Shown here one piece after another: positions 36,601-42,600 of a DNA stretch of 64,000 nt. A program made the position numbers. The stretch's first letter is position 1; every line of letters begins with the position of its first letter. The stretch covers positions 1 through 64,000 of the forward strand of contig CAWBKB010000008.1 of the NCBI GenBank assembly GCA_963789265.1. The letters are read 5' to 3'. This stretch comes from an uncultured delta proteobacterium (GTDB lineage Bacteria; Desulfobacterota; Desulfomonilia; Desulfomonilales; Desulfomonilaceae).

Positions 36601-39600
36601 CCCGCATACAAACTTCCGGAGAGCGTTGAGAAACCAGCAGAAGAGGGCAATATTGTTCAGAAGATTTTGATCGCGGTTCGGTCGAGGACCCATCACGATT
36701 TCACGCACTATAAGAAAAGCACCATTATTCGGCGCATCGAAAGACGTATGGCCGTGCACCAGCTTGCAAGGAAGCAGGATTACTTGCGCTTTCTTCAAGA
36801 CGATCCCTTGGAGGTCAAGACTCTTTTCAAAGAACTCCTCATCGGTGTGACCAATTTCTTTCGAGAGCCTGATGCCTTCGAGGCATTGCAGAAAAAGGTC
36901 CTCCCTAAAATACTGAACGGGGACAGAAACGTCCGAATATGGGTCCCCGCGTGCTCCACAGGCGAGGAAGCCTATTCAATCGCAATGCTTGCTCAGGAAT
37001 ACGCTACAGAAGCAAAGATCGACACTCGCTTCCAGATATTCGGCACGGACATAGACGAAGAAGGTATAGAGAAAGCTCGCGTCGGTGTGTACCCGCTGAG
37101 CATCGCTGCCGATGTCAGCCCGCAACGCCTCGAAAAGTTCTTTGCCAAAGAAGAGAACCGATTCCGCGTGAAGAAAGAGCTTCGGGAACTGATCGTATTC
37201 GCGGTCCAGAAACGTTATTTCAGATCCGCCCTTTTCAAAACTGGACCTCATAAGCTGCCGAAATTTGCTTATTTACATGAATACCGATTTGCAGAAAAGG
37301 TTGATTCACCTCTTTCATTATGCTCTGAATCCCGGCGGCTTCCTTTTCCTTGGCACTTCCGAGTCGGTTGGATCTTATTCTGATATGTACGCTACGACAG
37401 ATCGAAAATGGAAGCTGTATCGGCGCAGGGAAACGAGCATTCTAGCGACACATCCCGATCTGGAGTTTCAGGTGGCCCCGGAATTGCACGGGACCAAAGC
37501 CGAATTGAAAATGACCAAATACAGCTTCCGTGAGATTGCGGAAAAAGCTTTGCTGGACAACTACCGTGCCGCCGGTGTGGTTATAGACGAAAAACATGAG
37601 GTCATATATTTTTACGGTTACACTGGGAAATATCTCTCGCCGCCCTCGGGGGAAGCAAGTTTCAACCTTCTGAGGATGGCTCGGGAAGACCTAAAATTCG
37701 AATTGGCCAATTCCGTGCGCAGGGCCCAGGCCGAAAACAAAACAGTGATGCGTCCTGCTTTGCGCTTGAAAACTAATGGGGGCTATACGTCAGTAAATCT
37801 CACCGTCAGTCCCGTGCCGGCGCCTTCCAACAGGCATCTGCTCCTTGTGCTGTTCGAAGAGCCCGCCTATCCGAGAGGTGGAAGACAACCAGAAGTATTG
37901 ATCGAGCCTCAGGATGAAACGGGGGTCCAGGCAAGAGTCCGTGAATTGGAGCAGGAACTGGCGTCCACGAAGGAATATCTGCAGACTACCATTGAAGAAT
38001 TGGAGACTTCCAACGAAGAATTGAAATCAACCAATGAGGAATTGCAATCATCCAATGAGGAGCTGCAGAGCACAAACGAGGAATTGGAGACCGCCAAAGA
38101 AGAGCAGCAATCCGTTAATGAAGAGTTGGTGACGGTAAATTCCGAATTGCAGCAAAAGATAGAGGAGTTGTCCAGAGTAAATGACGATATGAACAACTTG
38201 CTCGCCAGCACCCAGGTTGGAACCATATTCTTGGATACCGACATGAATATCCTGCGTTTCACACCCACGGTCACGGAAATTGTCAACCTGATTCAAGGTG
38301 ATGTGGGACGGCCGCTGTCCCACATTGTTTCGAACCTCAATTACGATCGGCTTGTTGAGGACACGCAGGAAGTTCTGGAGGACTTGATTCCGCGCACCGT
38401 GGAAGTCCGGACGAAAGACGGGCGCTGGTTCTTGATGCGAATACAGCCGTACCGGACCATGGAAAATATTATTGATGGGGTGGTTCTGACATTCGTGGAC
38501 ATAAGCTTGCAGAAACGGCAATTAGCCGAATACGCACTCAGTGAAAATATAATTAACACGACTCATGAGGCCTTTCTGCTCTTGGACGCCAACTTGAACG
38601 TCGTCATGGCGAATTCCGCCTTCTTCAAGAAATTTGCGGTGGTCAAGGAGGAAACCGTAGGAAGACGGTTCTACGATCTGGGTAATCGACAGTGGGATAT
38701 CCCGGAATTGCGAACGCTTCTCGAGCAAGTCATTCCGGAACAAAAAGAAGTTCAGGGATTCGAAGTGGACCATACATTTGAAACCATAGGCAGGCGCAAG
38801 ATGATTCTAAACGCGAAGTTGCTCGCGGATGATGGTGCCAATCCGGGACTTATACTTTTGGCTATCGGGGATCTGAGCGAACGACGCTGATGGCTGGACA
38901 GGGGATATCAAAGTCCCCCTTTTGTAAAGGGGGATTTAAGGGGATTTTCAATTAGTTATCCCAAAATCCCTCTGCCGCCATAGGCGTTAAAATGGGGTCC
39001 AAGTCCTCTTCGTCCCGGAGGGACATCGTGATAATAGCCCGGCGATTTAGAAACTGTCTCAAAAGTCGATTTTGGGCTCGCGATTCTCAACCGATTCTAC
39101 TAATGAGATGTGAAAAGAGAATCGGAGAGGGAAAGGATTATGCCGCAAATCAGAGCCGACTACAAGCAGGTGTTTCTGCTTCCGCCCGCTATAGATGACT
39201 GGATAGGGCCTGATCATCCAGCGCGCTTCATAGGAGACTTTGTGGATTCCTTGGATTTGGAGGTGCTGGGTTTTCGAGTTCCGAATGGCGAAACGGGCCG
39301 TCCTCCCTATAGTACCGATCTTTTGTTGAAGGCATGGCTCTACGGCTATTTCAGCAGAATCAGGTCATCGCGCAAGCTTGAGAAGGCATGCATGGAGAAC
39401 ATGGGATTGATTTGGCTGACGGGTATGAATGCAGCGGATCATAATACCCTGTGGCGATTCTGGAGGGACAACAAGAAGGTTTTCAAGGGAATATTCAAAC
39501 AATCGGTTCAAGTGGCAGTCAAAGCCGAGTTGATAGGTATGGCGGTTCATGCATTGGATGGAACCAAGATCCCTGTCGGATCATCTCGGGAGAAGTTCAA

Positions 39601-42600
39601 GAACCAAGATCAGTTGGAGCGGATGCTTGAGAATTTGGACAAGTGCGTTGCCGACGTCATGACGGAGACAGAGAGGTGCGAGCAAGAGGAGGGTGGCGAA
39701 TGGCGTCTTCCCGAAGCCCTGCAGGACGAGTTGAAACGCAAGGAGCGGATACAGAAGGCCTTGCAGGAATTGGATAAGACTGACAAGAAGGTCGTCCATC
39801 CCTGCGAGCCGGATGCCCGGTACATGAAGAACCGGCGGTCTACTGAGCCCTCTTACAATGCTCAAGCGGTGGCAGACCAACAAAGCGGCATGATTGTGGC
39901 TGAGGAAGTGGTCGACGAAGGCAATGACAATGGGCAGCTTGTTCCCATGCTGGATCGAGTTCAGGAAAATTTGGGCGCAACCGCAGAGGAAACCGTGGCG
40001 GACGCAGGATACTTCGCATCGGCTCAAATCGCGTTGGCCGAAGAGAAGGAGTACGAGGTCTTGGTCGCCAAGTCGTCGGGAGAGTCCGCTGCGGAAAAAG
40101 GCGCTCAATGGGACCCTTATCACGCTTCCCAGTTCGTCTACGACCAAGAGCGAGACGTCTGTATTTGTCCGCAAGGCGCATCGCTGAACTTTCTTCAGAA
40201 GAAAGTCACAGGAAAAAACGGAAACGAGATCCGGCGGTATCGATGCCGGGACTACTTGACGTGTCCTGAACGGTGGAAGTGCAGCAAGAGCAAGAATGGC
40301 CGTCTCATAGACATTAACATCTATCGTGACGCAGTTGAGCGCCACCGCAAGAAACGGGAGGTCCCGGAAAGCAAGACGCTACTCCGAGCCCGCAAGGTGA
40401 TCATTGAGCCGGTCTTTGCATGGATAAAGAGCCACTTGGACTTTAGACGGTGGACCGTGTCCGGATTATCCAATGCGAGGGCTCAATGGTCTTTGATGTG
40501 CGCCACCTTGAATCTCAAGAAGCTCTACAGCCATTGGCTGACGGGGCGTCTGGTGCTAACCGCGGCCTAAGACATCAGGACGGAGAGTGACTCATGGCTG
40601 CCTGAGGCATACTCATAGCCGGCCCCGGCTCGTCGGAGACAAGGGAGGCCAAGGTGCGAGATTAACCGCACCCTACCACCCCGAGAGTCGTCATCGTGCC
40701 ACTACAACCGTTTTGAGACACTCTCTTTATCGCCGGGAATGAACGGCCAGGAGATCCTTCTTCGTCCCCGAAGGGCGCTCGAAGGATGAATCCTTCGAGC
40801 GCCCTTCGGGGACGAAGAACTGAATCATTGCTCATGGGTCACCCGGCAATGAATTGCCGGGCTATTATCTCGCCGCCCCTCTGGGGCTCATAAGGTTGCA
40901 CGGGTTGCCCTATTTTAACGCATATGCGGGAATCAATGTAGGGGCGCGGACCCGTGTGTCCGCCCGGGGCATCCACGAGGGATGCCCCTACGATGGTCGT
41001 CATCCTTTAATGCGGGAATTGTAGGTATGTAGGGGCACCCCTTGTGGGTGCCCTGGGCGAATGCCATTCGCCCCTACCGTGGATTTCCGCGCACGCGGGA
41101 ATTAGGAGGGCGGGCCTCCCGCGGGACGCTCGCGCTTAGGGCTGAAGAACCTCTGGGAGACAAAATCTGTGACCAAAATCGACGAACTGCGAGAAAGGGC
41201 GGAAGAGTCCCTAGTGTCAGGTGGTGCGGAACACGTTGATATCTCAGGGCTGTCTTCCGATGATTTGGGAAGGTTGGTCCATGAATTGCAAGTCCATCAA
41301 ATCGAGCTGGAAATGCAAAACGAGGAGCTGCGCCGGATGCAGCTCGAAATGGAATCCGCACAGGCCAGATATTCCGACCTCTATGAGTTTGCACCTGTGG
41401 GCTACTTTACGCTTGATAAGCGAGGCATCATTCGACAGGCCAACCTGGCGGGAACGCGACTGATGGCGGCAAATGCGAAGTCTTTTTTGGTCGACTCACC
41501 CTTCTCAAAGTTCGTTCACCCGGATGATCTGCGCACGTTCCTTTTGCACCTGCGGCAAGTCTATCAAAACGGAGAGAGGCTAACCTGCGAGATCAGGCTA
41601 AAGAGAAGCGGTGAGGAAGTGTTTGTGAGGCTGAACAGCGCCCCGGCCAAGAACACTGACGGAGCAGTGACCGAATGCCTAACGGTTGTGACTGATTTGA
41701 CGGAGCGGAAAAAGGCCGAACAGGCTCTTGCGTACAGTGAACAGCAATTCAGGGCCGTTTGCGAAAGCACGGAAGAAATCATCATCATCAAGGATACATC
41801 GCGCAAATGCCTCTACGCGAACCCCGCAGCAGAGCGGGCCTATGGAATTCCAGCTTCAAAAATGATCGGACGGAGATTCGAGACCCTTATCCAAGATGCC
41901 GATCCCGATCAATGTAAAGAGTTGGATCGGAGGGTGTTTGAAGGGGAACTGATAGAGGAGGAACAGCGCCGCATCTTGAAGGGAGCCCCTCTGATTTTTC
42001 TAGAGACCCGGACCCCTGTGCGAGACAAGAGAGGTAAAGTTAACGGCATACTTTTCCATGCTCGTGAGATTACAGACAGGAAATTGAGCCAAACCACTTT
42101 GGAGCAGGGCGAACCCCGCTATACGTCTGCGGCCATGCAATCTACGCTGAAAATGGCAGCCATCGCCGCCCAAAGAAACGTCACCATCTTGCTGTTAGGC
42201 GAAAGCGGCAGCGGGAAGGACTACGTGGCTAAGTACATTCACGATCATTCCCCGAGATCGGGTGGGCCCTATTTCTCCATAAATTGTGCCGCACTTCCTG
42301 CCGACCTGGCCGAATCAGAGCTTTTCGGCCACGAAAGAGGCTCATTCACCGGAGCAGCAGGGCGAAAAAGAGGGCTGTTGGAACTGGCTGAAGGAGGAAC
42401 TCTCCTGCTCAATGAAATCGGTGAACTCACTCCGCCATTGCAGGCAAAGTTGTTGACATTTCTGGACACCAAGAAATTCACCCGCGTGGGAGGAGAGAAA
42501 CAGATTTCAGTGAATGCGAGGCTCATCGCGGCTACTAACAAAGACTTGCATCGCGAAGTCGAAGAGGGCCGCTTCAGAAAAGACCTCCTTTACCGCCTAG

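Follow-up and report, generated by a model that had tools for sequence, protein, structure and literature searches.

Probable targeting of REP-like hairpin loops by an IS1182-family element and its MITEs in an uncultured delta proteobacterium

In the 64,000-nt stretch of DNA analyzed here (the window), from an uncultured delta proteobacterium (genome G000), an insertion sequence (IS) splits the hairpin cccggcga-TTTA-tcgccggg, and elsewhere in the genome the same IS and shorter elements (MITEs) with the same ends also lie between hairpin arms. This raises the question of what the transposase recognizes when it selects such sites. We consider it probable that an IS1182-family transposase inserts the IS and the MITEs into the loops of GC-rich hairpins, most of which are REPs.

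The IS in the window and its copies

The features of the locus are listed in Table 1. The IS proper is composed of 15-nt inverted ends and a single gene for a 476-aa transposase; the interval 39038-40737 previously assigned to it comprises the IS together with both hairpin arms, and the limits of the element itself are narrower. The flanks read cccggcga-TTTA[IS]TTTA-tcgccggg, so that the loop TTTA is doubled, and the left arm follows ATAG, which is a variant GTAG tag. The assignment to the IS1182 family was upheld by a score of 363.8 bits against NF033551 (cut-off 270) and by the Pfam domains DUF772, DDE_Tnp_1 and DDE_Tnp_1_6. D140, D288 and E423 were invariant in an alignment with five relatives (54-60% identity) and, with K430 seven residues further, are candidates for the DDE(K) residues. 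The protein also contains a Cys-rich insert (C341, C343, C369, C375 and C381).

Table 1. Features of the IS, its host element and related elements in the window
Feature	Position	Strand	Basis or remark
MITE of 210 bp with IS-type ends	29188..29397	.	inside GTAG-tagged hairpin ggtaggaccggcg-TCCC[MITE]TCTC-tgccg
Host element LCU, MITE-like repeat of ~270 bp, interrupted by the IS	38980..40925	.	TIR-pair scan, ends read
Hairpin 2 (GTCCC-GGA-GGGAC) of the split Acido-Lenti-1 module	39012..39024	-	
Left arm (cccggcga) of the split target hairpin	39038..39045	.	
Loop TTTA, left duplicate	39046..39049	.	
IS1182-family IS, 1676 bp	39050..40725	+	ends exactly as in 18 genomic copies
Left terminal inverted repeat, GAAACTGTCTCAAAA	39050..39064	+	
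Transposase gene, 476 aa	39140..40570	+	NCBIfam NF033551, Pfam
Right terminal inverted repeat, reverse complement, GAGAGTGTCTCAAAA	40711..40725	-	
Loop TTTA, right duplicate	40726..40729	.	
Right arm (tcgccggg) of the split hairpin	40730..40737	.	
Central 28+28-nt palindrome of LCU	40760..40817	.	
Second Acido-Lenti-1 module, intact, same LCU	40842..40888	+	RF01687 40.2 bits, fold
Solo IS1182-type end, MITE remnant	46130..46144	-	adjoins TTCA-gccccgggctgcc

A BLAST search of the 6.06-Mb genome with the 1676-bp IS returned 18 matches, all full-length and 99.46-100% identical (18/18). The number agrees with the survey's finding; the identities of 95-99.9% given there had included the flanks. The transposase gene was intact in 15/18 copies. 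Among seven genomes of the genus, intact copies were confined to G000, and one degraded copy (90%, duplication TGAA) was found in G004. The Logan unitig of run X1 that spans 39049-40726 had a depth of 52, whereas most bins elsewhere had roughly 1-6 and a few other repeat-rich bins had higher values. The near-identity of the copies, their intact genes and the lineage-specific insertions support the earlier description of the IS as currently active, although we infer transposition from these observations rather than having observed it. The burst of IS copies would be recent and lineage-specific.

Hairpin loops as insertion sites

We scanned the genome for the terminal inverted repeat (15-mer, at most 2 mismatches), using the reversed genome as a control, and obtained 253 ends compared with 21 in the control. 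These formed 100 pairs, including 18 of 1675-1677 bp and 58 of 205-212 bp; MITEs sharing the ends of the IS were thereby recovered, in a number of 58 instead of the 52 counted before. For the target-site counts, nine pairs containing another forward end were dropped, which left 91 pairs, with 60 MITEs of 200-220 bp among them. Identical 4-mers flanked 8/18 ISs, 45/60 MITEs and 3/13 other pairs. In the rebuilt sites, the 4-mer was located in a hairpin loop at 13/18 IS, 31/60 MITE and 2/13 other sites, compared with 383 of 20 000 random positions (1.9%), in line with the survey's claim of a hairpin-loop target with a 4-nt duplication; 29/60 MITE sites and 5/18 IS sites did not fold under the criteria used. 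Arms of the type CC[CT]GG[CT]... / ...GCCGGG flanked 16/18 IS copies, the same number as reported earlier for the CCCGGC/GCCGGG-type hairpin. The 4-mers on either side of the MITE in the window (TCCC/TCTC) differ by 1 nt.

At the 45 MITE sites where the two 4-mers are identical, complementarity was observed in 62-84% of sites at positions ±2 to ±8 and in 16-44% from ±9 outward. The targets have in common a stem of 8 bp with a loop of 4 nt, or sometimes 6 nt, and no single stem sequence; the stems vary (CCCGGCNN, CGCCGGC, GGCAGGCT, GACGGGC, GGCACGG) while the geometry is constant. Because the targets resemble each other in geometry rather than in stem sequence, the form recognized is most likely an extruded hairpin or cruciform. 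In the mechanism that we propose, the DDE transposase would bind the 15-nt inverted ends carried by the 1676-bp IS and by about 60 non-autonomous MITEs of 209 bp, and would integrate these elements into short palindromes rich in GC, for the most part REP hairpins with a GTAG tag. Strand transfer would take place on each strand at the 5΄ stem-loop junction, the presumed cut position; transfers at both junctions would leave the 4-nt loop duplicated and the arms on either side of the element.

An alternative that we regard as unlikely is that the transposase reads a dyad-symmetric duplex, as a dimer on two half-sites, in which case REPs would be hit for being palindromic with GGC-rich cores. Many DDE transposases prefer symmetric targets. 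The stems of the 45 MITE sites show a position-specific bias toward G at –4 and –7 (36/45 and 33/45) and toward C at –6 (34/45), and since GGC-like G/C-rich cores are common to the stems, some reading of the sequence is possible. Moreover, one insertion that is proven did not enter a hairpin site: the IS at C6:341113, the sole IS copy for which an empty orthologous site was found, corresponds in G001 to a single TTTC with no significant hairpin (z –0.36), which indicates that hairpins are favored without being essential. Against a duplex target stands the use of five or more stem families whose half-sites differ, and of a sixth (CCCATAGC) by relatives, with complementarity and the position of the loop constant throughout; the duplication also coincides with the loop and not with a set distance from a motif.

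The empty sites reported for sister species were found again. The MITE at C1:560504-560708 is absent in G001, where the site reads GTAGGCGGAC-TTTTT-GTCCGC; the composite insertion at C3:554475-554838 is missing from G001, G002, G004, G005 and G006; and the MITE at C5:459647-459852 occurs in G001 and is lacking in G006, whose empty site forms an intact hairpin with a 12-bp stem and the loop CATG (–16.9 kcal/mol, z –4.9). A single 4-mer is present at the empty sites of all three insertions. The flanks of the window IS were contiguous, with exactly 4 nt in common, in uninterrupted homologous copies (13 in G001 and 1 in G002). These sites bear on the idea that the hairpin arms are part of the moving unit and that the target hairpin is replaced, for which the ‘stem-loop replacing’ mode proposed for IS1272 (PMC5678879) provides a precedent. 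Two features agree with it: 2-6 nt beside an IS end deviate in several copies from what would be expected given the remaining flank (e.g. C1:1157220 and C1:291952), and the flanking 4-mers are reverse complements in three IS copies, as a longer inverted repeat would give. We nevertheless consider moving arms highly improbable, as both arms and one loop already exist in the empty orthologous sites, which contradicts the idea for the MITEs; the arms vary from copy to copy in keeping with the repeat family at each locus, a clean direct duplication of 4 nt borders 45/60 MITEs, and the window flanks are joined with 4 common nt in all 14 uninterrupted copies. Counting against the loop-duplicating mechanism, unlike 4-mers flanked 10/18 IS copies. 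A simple reciprocal exchange among these copies was not supported, as the tabulated left and right types do not pair, and gene order was preserved at two of them.

The survey linked the MITEs to the IS, and the identical 15-nt ends, the equal 4-nt duplication and the same loop targeting support this relationship. It is conceivable, if somewhat doubtful, that the MITEs were mobilized by a different, now missing relative, and that the common ends reflect shared descent only. G001 contains dozens of MITE copies, and no close relative of the transposase was found there (the best match, at 32% identity, does not have these ends); older MITE copies were therefore possibly moved by a lost relative. 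The MITEs are also more diverged, their similarity to the IS is weak beyond the 15-nt ends, and they use other hairpin families, with the loops TTCC, GGGA and ATCT compared with TTNA and TNAA for the IS. Apart from the shared features named above, a missing mobilizer is opposed by at least seven MITEs in the hairpin family of the IS (TGAA/TTCA class).

Acido-Lenti-1 modules as probable mobile repeats

The IS copies would favor the A/T-rich loops of one hairpin family, namely hairpin 1 of the Rfam family Acido-Lenti-1 (RF01687), which on the other strand would constitute a REP module of GTAG, palindrome and second small hairpin. RF01687 matched once in the window, at the intact module, where hairpin 1 (40842-40861; 8-bp stem, loop TGAA, –9.9 kcal/mol, z –4.0) is followed by CTAT and hairpin 2. 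The host element LCU has the ends ATAGGCGTTAAAAT and its inverse and carries two inverted modules and the central palindrome; intact copies exist elsewhere in the genome, and the element is absent at the orthologous G001 sites.

In the whole genome, at least 43 RF01687 matches were obtained at E ≤ 1e-3 and at least 14 above the gathering score, a lower bound with 150 of 1129 candidates scored; the family is multi-copy, as noted before, when 18 rows were reported. Since 30/43 matches were located inside two TIR-bounded MITE families and 6 more adjoined IS1182-type ends, the IS is mostly nested in other mobile elements, where insertion would be harmless. Most Acido-Lenti-1 copies here are modules inside the two MITE families, one of which includes the LCU that hosts the window's IS, and not free-standing REPs. 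The modules occur as inverted doublets, as the survey described, in arrangements of 56 nt start-to-start in type-B MITEs (+/–) and about 150 nt in a 260-bp element (–/+) instead of 77 or ~128 nt.

The hairpin pattern of family 1 matched 83 times, compared with 21 times in the control, and a GTAG-type tag stood beside the stem in 47. PMC3733652 describes REPs/REPINs in which GT[AG]G stands on the 5΄ side of a palindrome rich in GC, with doublets in inverted orientation and a RAYT between inverted REPs. The same arrangement was observed at C7:408888 and C3:99734, where hairpins that belong to the MITE-target families and bear a GT[AG]G tag flank Y1 transposase genes. It also occurs in the related genomes G031 and G022, where a 160-aa RAYT has inverted Acido-Lenti-1-type modules on both sides; in G022, the gene is 76 nt away from an RF01687 match of 60.2 bits. 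These tagged hairpins and inverted copies support the earlier view of a REP-like repeat with GTAG on the opposite strand. The modules differ from REPs/REPINs in the second small hairpin outside the tag and, in this genome, in the broken RAYT and in their location, mostly within MITEs of the DDE type, which have inverted ends and target duplications. The RAYT homolog of G000 is frameshifted (56% and 42% identity in two frames) and, by its reading frames, is a pseudogene; the modules would persist mainly as passengers of the two MITE families.

RF01687 was multi-copy in 19/40 genomes of the family, with up to at least 64 matches per genome, and was found in 0/40 genomes of the sister family. Counting against the REP association, no RF01687 match was found at 15/17 Y1 transposase loci of five high-copy genomes, and G040, with at least 64 RF01687 matches, contained no Y1_Tnp match at E ≤ 1e-8. 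Rfam curates the family as an sRNA of unknown function (Acidobacteria, Lentisphaerae), Table 1 of Weinberg 2010 rates it ‘y’ as an RNA (PMC2864571), and PMC3733652 states that REPs may undergo transcription and function at the RNA level. The two-hairpin architecture here is identical to that of RF01687. There is a small chance that Acido-Lenti-1 represents a family of true small RNA genes, whose overlap with IS targets and REP-like traits is incidental. This is opposed by the copy number, which runs from dozens to 64 or more per genome, the patchy distribution, the inverted doublets within TIR-bounded elements, the RAYT genes between inverted copies, the many matches at contig ends, and CUAC (GTAG on the other strand) directly after hairpin 1 in 3/6 seed rows viewed. 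Acido-Lenti-1 looks like the reverse strand of a GTAG-tagged REP, that is, a mobile DNA repeat.

Comparison with known elements

The mechanism is not new in kind. PMC4923244 and PMC5678879 describe hairpin or inverted-repeat targets with little common primary sequence and no sequence specificity for IS1272 and TnSha1, IS1182-family elements of staphylococci. As described there, these elements target terminators and delete all or part of the stem-loop without target duplication, whereas here the targets are REPs, the arms are kept, the 4-nt loop is duplicated and about 60 cognate MITEs occur. The pattern matches ‘pathway c’, a loop-only duplication drawn as a possible pathway in PMC5678879 (Fig. 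13 legend). REP targeting, with specific insertion into REP or palindromic units as hot spots, has also been published for five other families, IS3 (IS1397, ISKpn1), IS110 (IS621, ISPpu9/10, ISPa11), IS4 (ISRm22), IS256 and IS5, and IS1182 is not among the five in the passages of PMC1525189 on these targets. Those elements differ in the transposase (an IS3 type with two ORFs, or IS110 recombinases of the DEDD type, which lack inverted ends), and each reads one REP type, whereas the IS described here uses several unrelated stems. IS1397 reportedly enters the loop and duplicates 3-4 bp. New in this case are the loop-exact insertion with a 4-bp duplication and retained arms, the cognate MITEs and the range of targets, which comprises five or more unrelated stem sequences. 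Among eight relatives of the transposase (51-71% aa identity) with placeable ends, four had identical 4-mers, and 3/4 of these sit in ATAG/ACAG-tagged hairpins, which suggests that insertion into hairpin loops may be a property of the clade.

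An IS1182-family element and its related MITEs

The transposase of the insertion sequence (IS) in the window matched the NCBIfam model NF033551 ('IS1182 family transposase') at 363.8 bits (cut-off 270) over profile positions 3-486 of 488, and the IS5, ISNCY and IS1634 models all scored under their cut-offs. The Pfam domains DUF772, DDE_Tnp_1 and DDE_Tnp_1_6 were detected at 59.3, 51 and 77.9 bits, respectively. IS1182-family elements are about 1.3-1.95 kb long. The curated model, the domain make-up, the single gene between inverted repeats (the two ends agree at 13 of 15 positions) and the length together place the element in this family. 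In an alignment of six sequences, the transposase and five relatives with 54-60% identity, D140, D288, E423 and K430 were invariant, as were five cysteines between the second D and the E; by their position, the first four are candidate catalytic residues. The coordinates of the features are summarized in the table.

Features in the window (bare positions) and elsewhere in the genome (contig named)
Feature	Position	Detail
IS with both arms of the split hairpin	39038-40737	flanks cccggcga-TTTA[IS]TTTA-tcgccggg
IS proper	39050-40725	1676 bp
IS left end		GAAACTGTCTCAAAA
IS right end, reverse complement		GAGAGTGTCTCAAAA
Transposase gene	39140-40570	476 aa; sole gene of the IS
Target stem family 1		CCCGGCNN-NNNN-NNGCCGGG
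Target stem family		CGCCGGC-aGGGAc-GCCGGCG
Target stem family		GGCAGGCT-TTCC-AGCCTGCC
Target stem family		GACGGGC-ATCT-tGCCCGTC
Target stem family		GGCACGG-CATG-CCGTGCC
Loop-replacing palindrome	C1:897614-897645, C1:913024-913052, C6:294272-294488, left flank of IS C4:76802	C6 case inside a MITE
Y1 gene	C7:408888-409172	11 tagged hairpins GT[AG]GGACAGGC-NNN-GCCTGTC, both strands
Y1 gene	C3:99734-99973	5 hairpins GTAGGACCGGC-ATCT-TGCCGGTC, inverted across the gene
Y1 gene	C5:552283-552525	two tagged hairpins within 900 bp
LCU examples	38980-40925, C1:745726-745986, C4:117117-117403, C8:100866-101131

A BLAST search of the IS against the genome (9 contigs, 6.06 Mb) yielded 18 full-length copies that were 99.46-100% identical; the 476-aa frame was intact in 15 and frameshifted in 3. 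These near-identical copies, together with insertions that are absent in sister species, suggest that the IS is active in transposition. Among the seven genomes of the genus, intact copies were confined to the genome under study. G004 carried one degraded copy (90% DNA identity) with stops in the gene and TGAA/TGAA flanks, and the transposases of G001 and G006 were just 31-32% identical and lacked the IS ends; these distant 463-aa proteins were also considered as partners of the MITEs and rejected, since none of 5 loci had paired ends at ≤3 mismatches. Run X1 (Logan contigs) contained a unitig of 1678 nt over 39049-40726 at a depth of 52, with a depth elsewhere of about 1-6 in most bins and higher values in a few other repeat-rich bins, which is consistent with a many-copy repeat of these boundaries.

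We then scanned for the 15-nt ends with ≤2 mismatches and obtained 253 ends (reversed genome: 21). Of the 100 pairs of ends, 18 were 1675-1677 bp and 58 were 205-212 bp long. After removal of 9 pairs enclosing another forward end, 91 pairs were analyzed: 18 ISs, 60 MITEs (200-220 bp) and 13 of other sizes. The MITE cores comprised 44 of type A, with CCCTCTCCC/GGGAGAGGG-type hairpins, 15 of type B, an inverted doublet of the Acido-Lenti-1 module (Rfam RF01687), and 1 that was unclear. These elements are short, contain no gene, have IS-like ends and the same target duplication, and differ in presence between relatives. Their shared ends and duplication suggest that they are derivatives of the IS, with its transposase as their putative mobilizing enzyme.

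Hairpin loops as insertion sites

The survey's finding that the IS and its MITEs insert into the loops of REP-like hairpins proved real and well supported. Identical 4-mers flanked 45/60 MITEs, 8/18 ISs and 3/13 of the other pairs. When the sites were rebuilt and folded, tolerating 1-2 mismatches in stems of ≥8 bp, the 4-mer lay in a hairpin loop at 31/60 MITE, 13/18 IS and 2/13 other sites, compared with 383 of 20 000 random positions; under strict folding (a run of ≥5 Watson-Crick pairs), the respective values were 20/60, 11/18 and 3/13, with 0.9% at random. Where a MITE had identical 4-mers on both sides (45 sites), the flanking positions ±2 to ±8 were complementary in 62-84% of sites, and those from ±9 outward in 16-44%. 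This pattern indicates a target in which a stem of 8 bp encloses the 4 nt that are duplicated; in one family, the loop is 6 nt long.

At least five stem families were represented at the target sites, and most stems were preceded on one strand by GT[AG]G. This tag was found at 28 of the 31 folding MITE sites and at 10 of the 13 folding IS sites, to which 2 with ATAG can be added (counted by eye), as well as at 47 of 83 family-1 hairpins. Family 1, with the loops TTCA, TTTA, TAAA or TGAA, harbored 16 of the 18 IS copies. Several of its hairpins have the loop replaced by a 16-17-nt palindrome, TCCCGCG-NNN-CGCGGGA, which might represent another very small insertion, a variant or a footprint.

Comparison with the six same-genus genomes, of which G001 is the nearest (flanks 81-94% identical), provided orthologous empty sites for two MITEs. 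At C1:560504-560708, the G001 flanks abut and the site reads GTAGGCGGAC-TTTTT-GTCCGC, corresponding to ...GTAGGCAGAC-T-TTTA[MITE]TTTA-GTCCGC in the genome under study. The MITE at C5:459647-459852 is present in G001 and absent in G006, where the site, GGTAGGGGCACGG-CATG-CCGTGCCCCTAC, folds at -16.9 kcal/mol (z -4.9); CATG is duplicated in the genome under study. Moreover, a 364-bp composite at C3:554475-554838 is absent in G001 (4 nt common to the flanks), G002, G004, G005 and G006. It consists of a 157-bp element, flanked by TCAG and containing a GTAG-tagged hairpin, with a 207-bp MITE in the hairpin loop and TCCC duplicated, and this nested arrangement recurs as a unit at two other places in G001. 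The 157-bp element itself has imperfect inverted ends (...TTTCATAATTACGG) and a GTAGCGCCG-type hairpin at its center.

For the IS itself, the empty site of copy C6:341113 in G001 contains a single TTTC, which proves the 4-bp duplication; this site has no significant hairpin (z -0.36). Orthologous empty sites of hairpin-split copies were sought in G001 at five loci, none of which was usable: the whole host element was missing at C3:79060 and C1:464469, a different MITE occupied C1:2124932, one flank matched alone at C8:99134, and the region of a REP-associated Y1 transposase (RAYT) gene was missing at C6:392194. No orthologous empty site was found for the window copy, and, in the parts of the window that they cover, none of the metagenome contigs joined its flanks at the orthologous place. 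These flanks are contiguous, with exactly 4 nt in common, in 13 host-repeat copies in G001 and 1 in G002. In run X2, a short loose end at 39049 (3 records) reads TCGCCGGGAAT, the empty-hairpin form, which may come from a paralogous copy, as the flank is itself a repeat.

Public MAG records, with titles naming a delta proteobacterium, Syntrophorhabdus and Acidobacteriota, hold relatives of the transposase with 51-71% amino acid identity. Eight had placeable ends. Four of these showed identical 4-mers (CGTC, CAGC, GACG and TGAA), three of the four sitting in ATAG/ACAG-tagged CCCATAGC-type hairpins; three more had hairpin-like flanks with unlike 4-mers, and one was without a hairpin. Loop targeting thus looks like a property of this clade of transposases.

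Strand transfer and unlike flanking 4-mers

DDE strand transfer has a standard polarity. Because the duplicated segment is the loop itself and neither arm is lost, the two transfers would, with this polarity, occur at the 5' loop boundary of each strand, 4 nt apart. The stems are unrelated in sequence and their complementarity ends sharply at 8 bp, from which we infer that the transposase recognizes the tip of an extruded hairpin or cruciform; we consider this somewhat more probable than the reading of a dyad-symmetric duplex. A duplication with retained arms corresponds to 'pathway c' as depicted by Wan et al. 2017 in their Fig. 13 (PMC5678879); for the IS1182-family element IS1272, these authors observed the other outcome, with the stem-loop lost and no duplication (PMC5678879; PMC4923244). 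How secondary structure is chosen was left open for IS1272, where the authors had between three and a few dozen sites and lacked a duplication to show where the cuts fell. The 78 insertions described here, in at least five stem families and with empty sites in sister species, form a clean natural data set on how a DDE transposase makes this choice, with the cuts placed by the duplicated loop at the junctions of stem and loop.

Unlike 4-mers were observed at 10 of the 18 IS copies; the MITEs, which are older, were alike in 45 of 60. At 7 of the 10 copies, the flanks still form one hairpin, and the 4-mers differ at one or more positions next to an IS end, sometimes including the adjacent 2 nt of the arm; such pairs include TTGA/TTCA, TAAA/TGAA and three reverse-complement pairs. 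At an 'eighth' copy, C4:269533, the 4-mers are identical and the inner arm is mismatched. At the remaining three of the ten (C1:1609097, C5:128296 and possibly C1:514278), the flanks derive from two different hairpins, which belong either to a single inverted doublet or to separate elements, and the interior is missing; C1:597561 shows this pattern with identical 4-mers and is outside the ten. Two of the copies with unlike 4-mers have the same surrounding gene order as in G001.

The candidate causes are recombination or gene conversion between near-identical 1.7-kb copies reaching into their homologous flanks, placement of the two ends in neighboring loops, and assembly error at long repeats. 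Reciprocal exchange between ISs was rejected as the sole cause, because left and right types fail to pair; for example, the two left flanks with gcTTGA have no TTGAgc counterpart on the right, and the two right flanks with TTTAgc have no gcTTTA counterpart on the left. Blunt insertion at the center of 24-bp perfect palindromes, considered as an explanation of TAAA...TTTA flanks, was likewise rejected, since arm pairs with an 8-nt spacer showed no enrichment (29, with about 25 expected as background); pairs with a 4-nt spacer numbered 77. An artefact of majority-consensus polishing fits poorly with the junction 4-mers, which vary in the assembled genome, none of them predominating.

REPs, Acido-Lenti-1 and nested elements

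REPs are GTAG-tagged palindromic repeats associated with RAYT genes. The genome contains six Y1_Tnp (PF01797) matches, three of which have tagged hairpins nearby; the same scan detected none near the other three. The hairpin arrays around the small C7 and C3 genes extend over C7:408532-410038 and C3:99505-100115, within 900 bp. Both layouts are the textbook RAYT-REP arrangement, a cognate Y1 gene with inverted repeats, in hairpin families used by the MITEs, and the targets are therefore real REPs. Two of the Y1_Tnp matches, C4:127925-128263 and C1:92163-92501, lie in open frames of 372 and 377 aa, respectively, with no tagged hairpins within 900 bp, and are of a different kind.

REP targeting is already in print for the IS3, IS110, IS4, IS256 and IS5 families (PMC1525189), and hairpin targeting by the IS1182 family for IS1272/TnSha1 (PMC5678879; PMC4923244); beyond the latter, we found nothing on REP targeting by the IS1182 family in the literature available to us in part.

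A covariance match to RF01687 at window 40842-40888 (40.2 bits) comprises hairpin 1, which belongs to the target family of the IS, followed by CTAT/CTAC and a small second hairpin; on the opposite strand, Acido-Lenti-1 reads as a small hairpin, about 8 nt, GTAG and a palindrome. Among six seed rows of Weinberg 2010, three have CUAC directly after hairpin 1, and the others have CUAA, CUGU and CUGA. The genome holds at least 43 matches at E ≤ 1e-3, of which 14 reach the gathering score (≥37 bits). RF01687 was found in 19 of 40 genomes of the bacterial family, with up to 64 scored matches, many at contig ends, and in 0 of 40 genomes of the sister family. The sequencing runs found were all of DNA.

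At the 2 loci, of 17 Y1 loci, that were inspected by motif, in the relatives G031 and G022, a Y1 gene is accompanied by inverted modules of the Acido-Lenti-1 type. The 160-aa RAYT of G031 is flanked on both sides by a small hairpin, GTAG and GCCGGCGA-TT[CT]A-TCGCCGG; G022 has the same layout, and its best RF01687 match (60.2 bits) lies 76 nt from the gene. In five high-copy genomes, covariance matches (E ≤ 0.01) stood beside 1 of 17 Y1 loci, and G040, with 64 or more scored matches, had no Y1_Tnp match at E ≤ 1e-8. In the genome under study, the homolog of this RAYT at C6:391601-392189 is a pseudogene over two frames (42% and 56% identity to the G031 protein) with hairpins on the 3' side only and one IS copy in the hairpin directly behind it. 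A 2026 preprint still calls Acido-Lenti-1 'abundant ... of unknown function', and no link to REPs was found in the portions of the literature available. One explanation would be that Acido-Lenti-1, read on its other strand, is a GTAG-tagged REP with an associated RAYT and also spreads inside MITEs; if true, the annotation of RF01687 matches would change.

Of the 43 matches, 30 lie inside elements bounded by terminal inverted repeats, 16 in IS1182-ended MITEs and 14 in a second family, LCU; for another 6, the distance to an IS1182-type end is at most 230 nt. LCU elements (32 end pairs) are about 250-290 bp long, with shorter variants of 175-187 bp, and have the ends ATAGGCGTTAAAAT and a central palindrome. 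They are absent at two orthologous G001 sites, which indicates that they are mobile too. About half of the copies have direct repeats of 10-13 nt that themselves occupy the center of a small hairpin or REP (such as GGCAGGATGCC in GTGGGACAGGC...GCCTGTC); LCU accordingly also lands on hairpins, with a wide stagger. No partner transposase was identified for LCU. As a partner IS for this 260-bp element, an IS1595-family transposase (C1:1642833-1643807, L082:1334-2308; DDE_Tnp_IS1595 at 104.5 bits plus a zinc ribbon), which lies between two LCU-type ends 3061 bp apart and has an unannotated 332-aa frame upstream, was rejected, because the two ends may simply belong to neighboring copies.

Seven of the 18 IS copies, including that of the window, are inserted in complete LCUs, and at least four in type-B MITEs. 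In this little-studied lineage, several mobile elements use REP hairpins as stacked landing pads. In G040, a head-to-head Acido-Lenti-1 doublet (L116-L119) lies in a repeat of about 300 bp with inverted ends of its own (GGGTGCAGCGCG...). Within the literature available, we found no precedent for the loop-exact mode with duplication, its occurrence in a clade of IS1182 relatives, cognate MITEs (with landing pads of their own in one of the types), or the reading of Acido-Lenti-1 as a RAYT-associated REP that also travels in MITEs.

A more speculative picture, which we hold to be rather unlikely as a whole, is that a whole clade of IS1182-family transposases responds to nothing but the shape of an extruded DNA hairpin and cleaves at its 5' stem-loop junctions; any palindrome with an 8-bp stem and a 4-nt loop would then serve as a landing pad. 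The IS, the REPs and two or three MITE families would make up a nested 'hairpin economy', in which type-B MITEs and the 260-bp element carry pads, a second MITE family inserts into hairpins and duplicates 10-13 bp, and Acido-Lenti-1 is the central DNA module.

A chimera at C1:897560-897910 joins a left type-B MITE half with a degenerate end to a right LCU half at the Acido-Lenti-1 hairpin that both share, a structure suggestive of recombination in which modules from distinct elements were joined. In addition, the intergenic, palindrome-dense stretch at window 45500-46100, with a contig depth of 20-30 in all four metagenome runs compared with 1-5 in neighboring bins, probably holds further repeat families.
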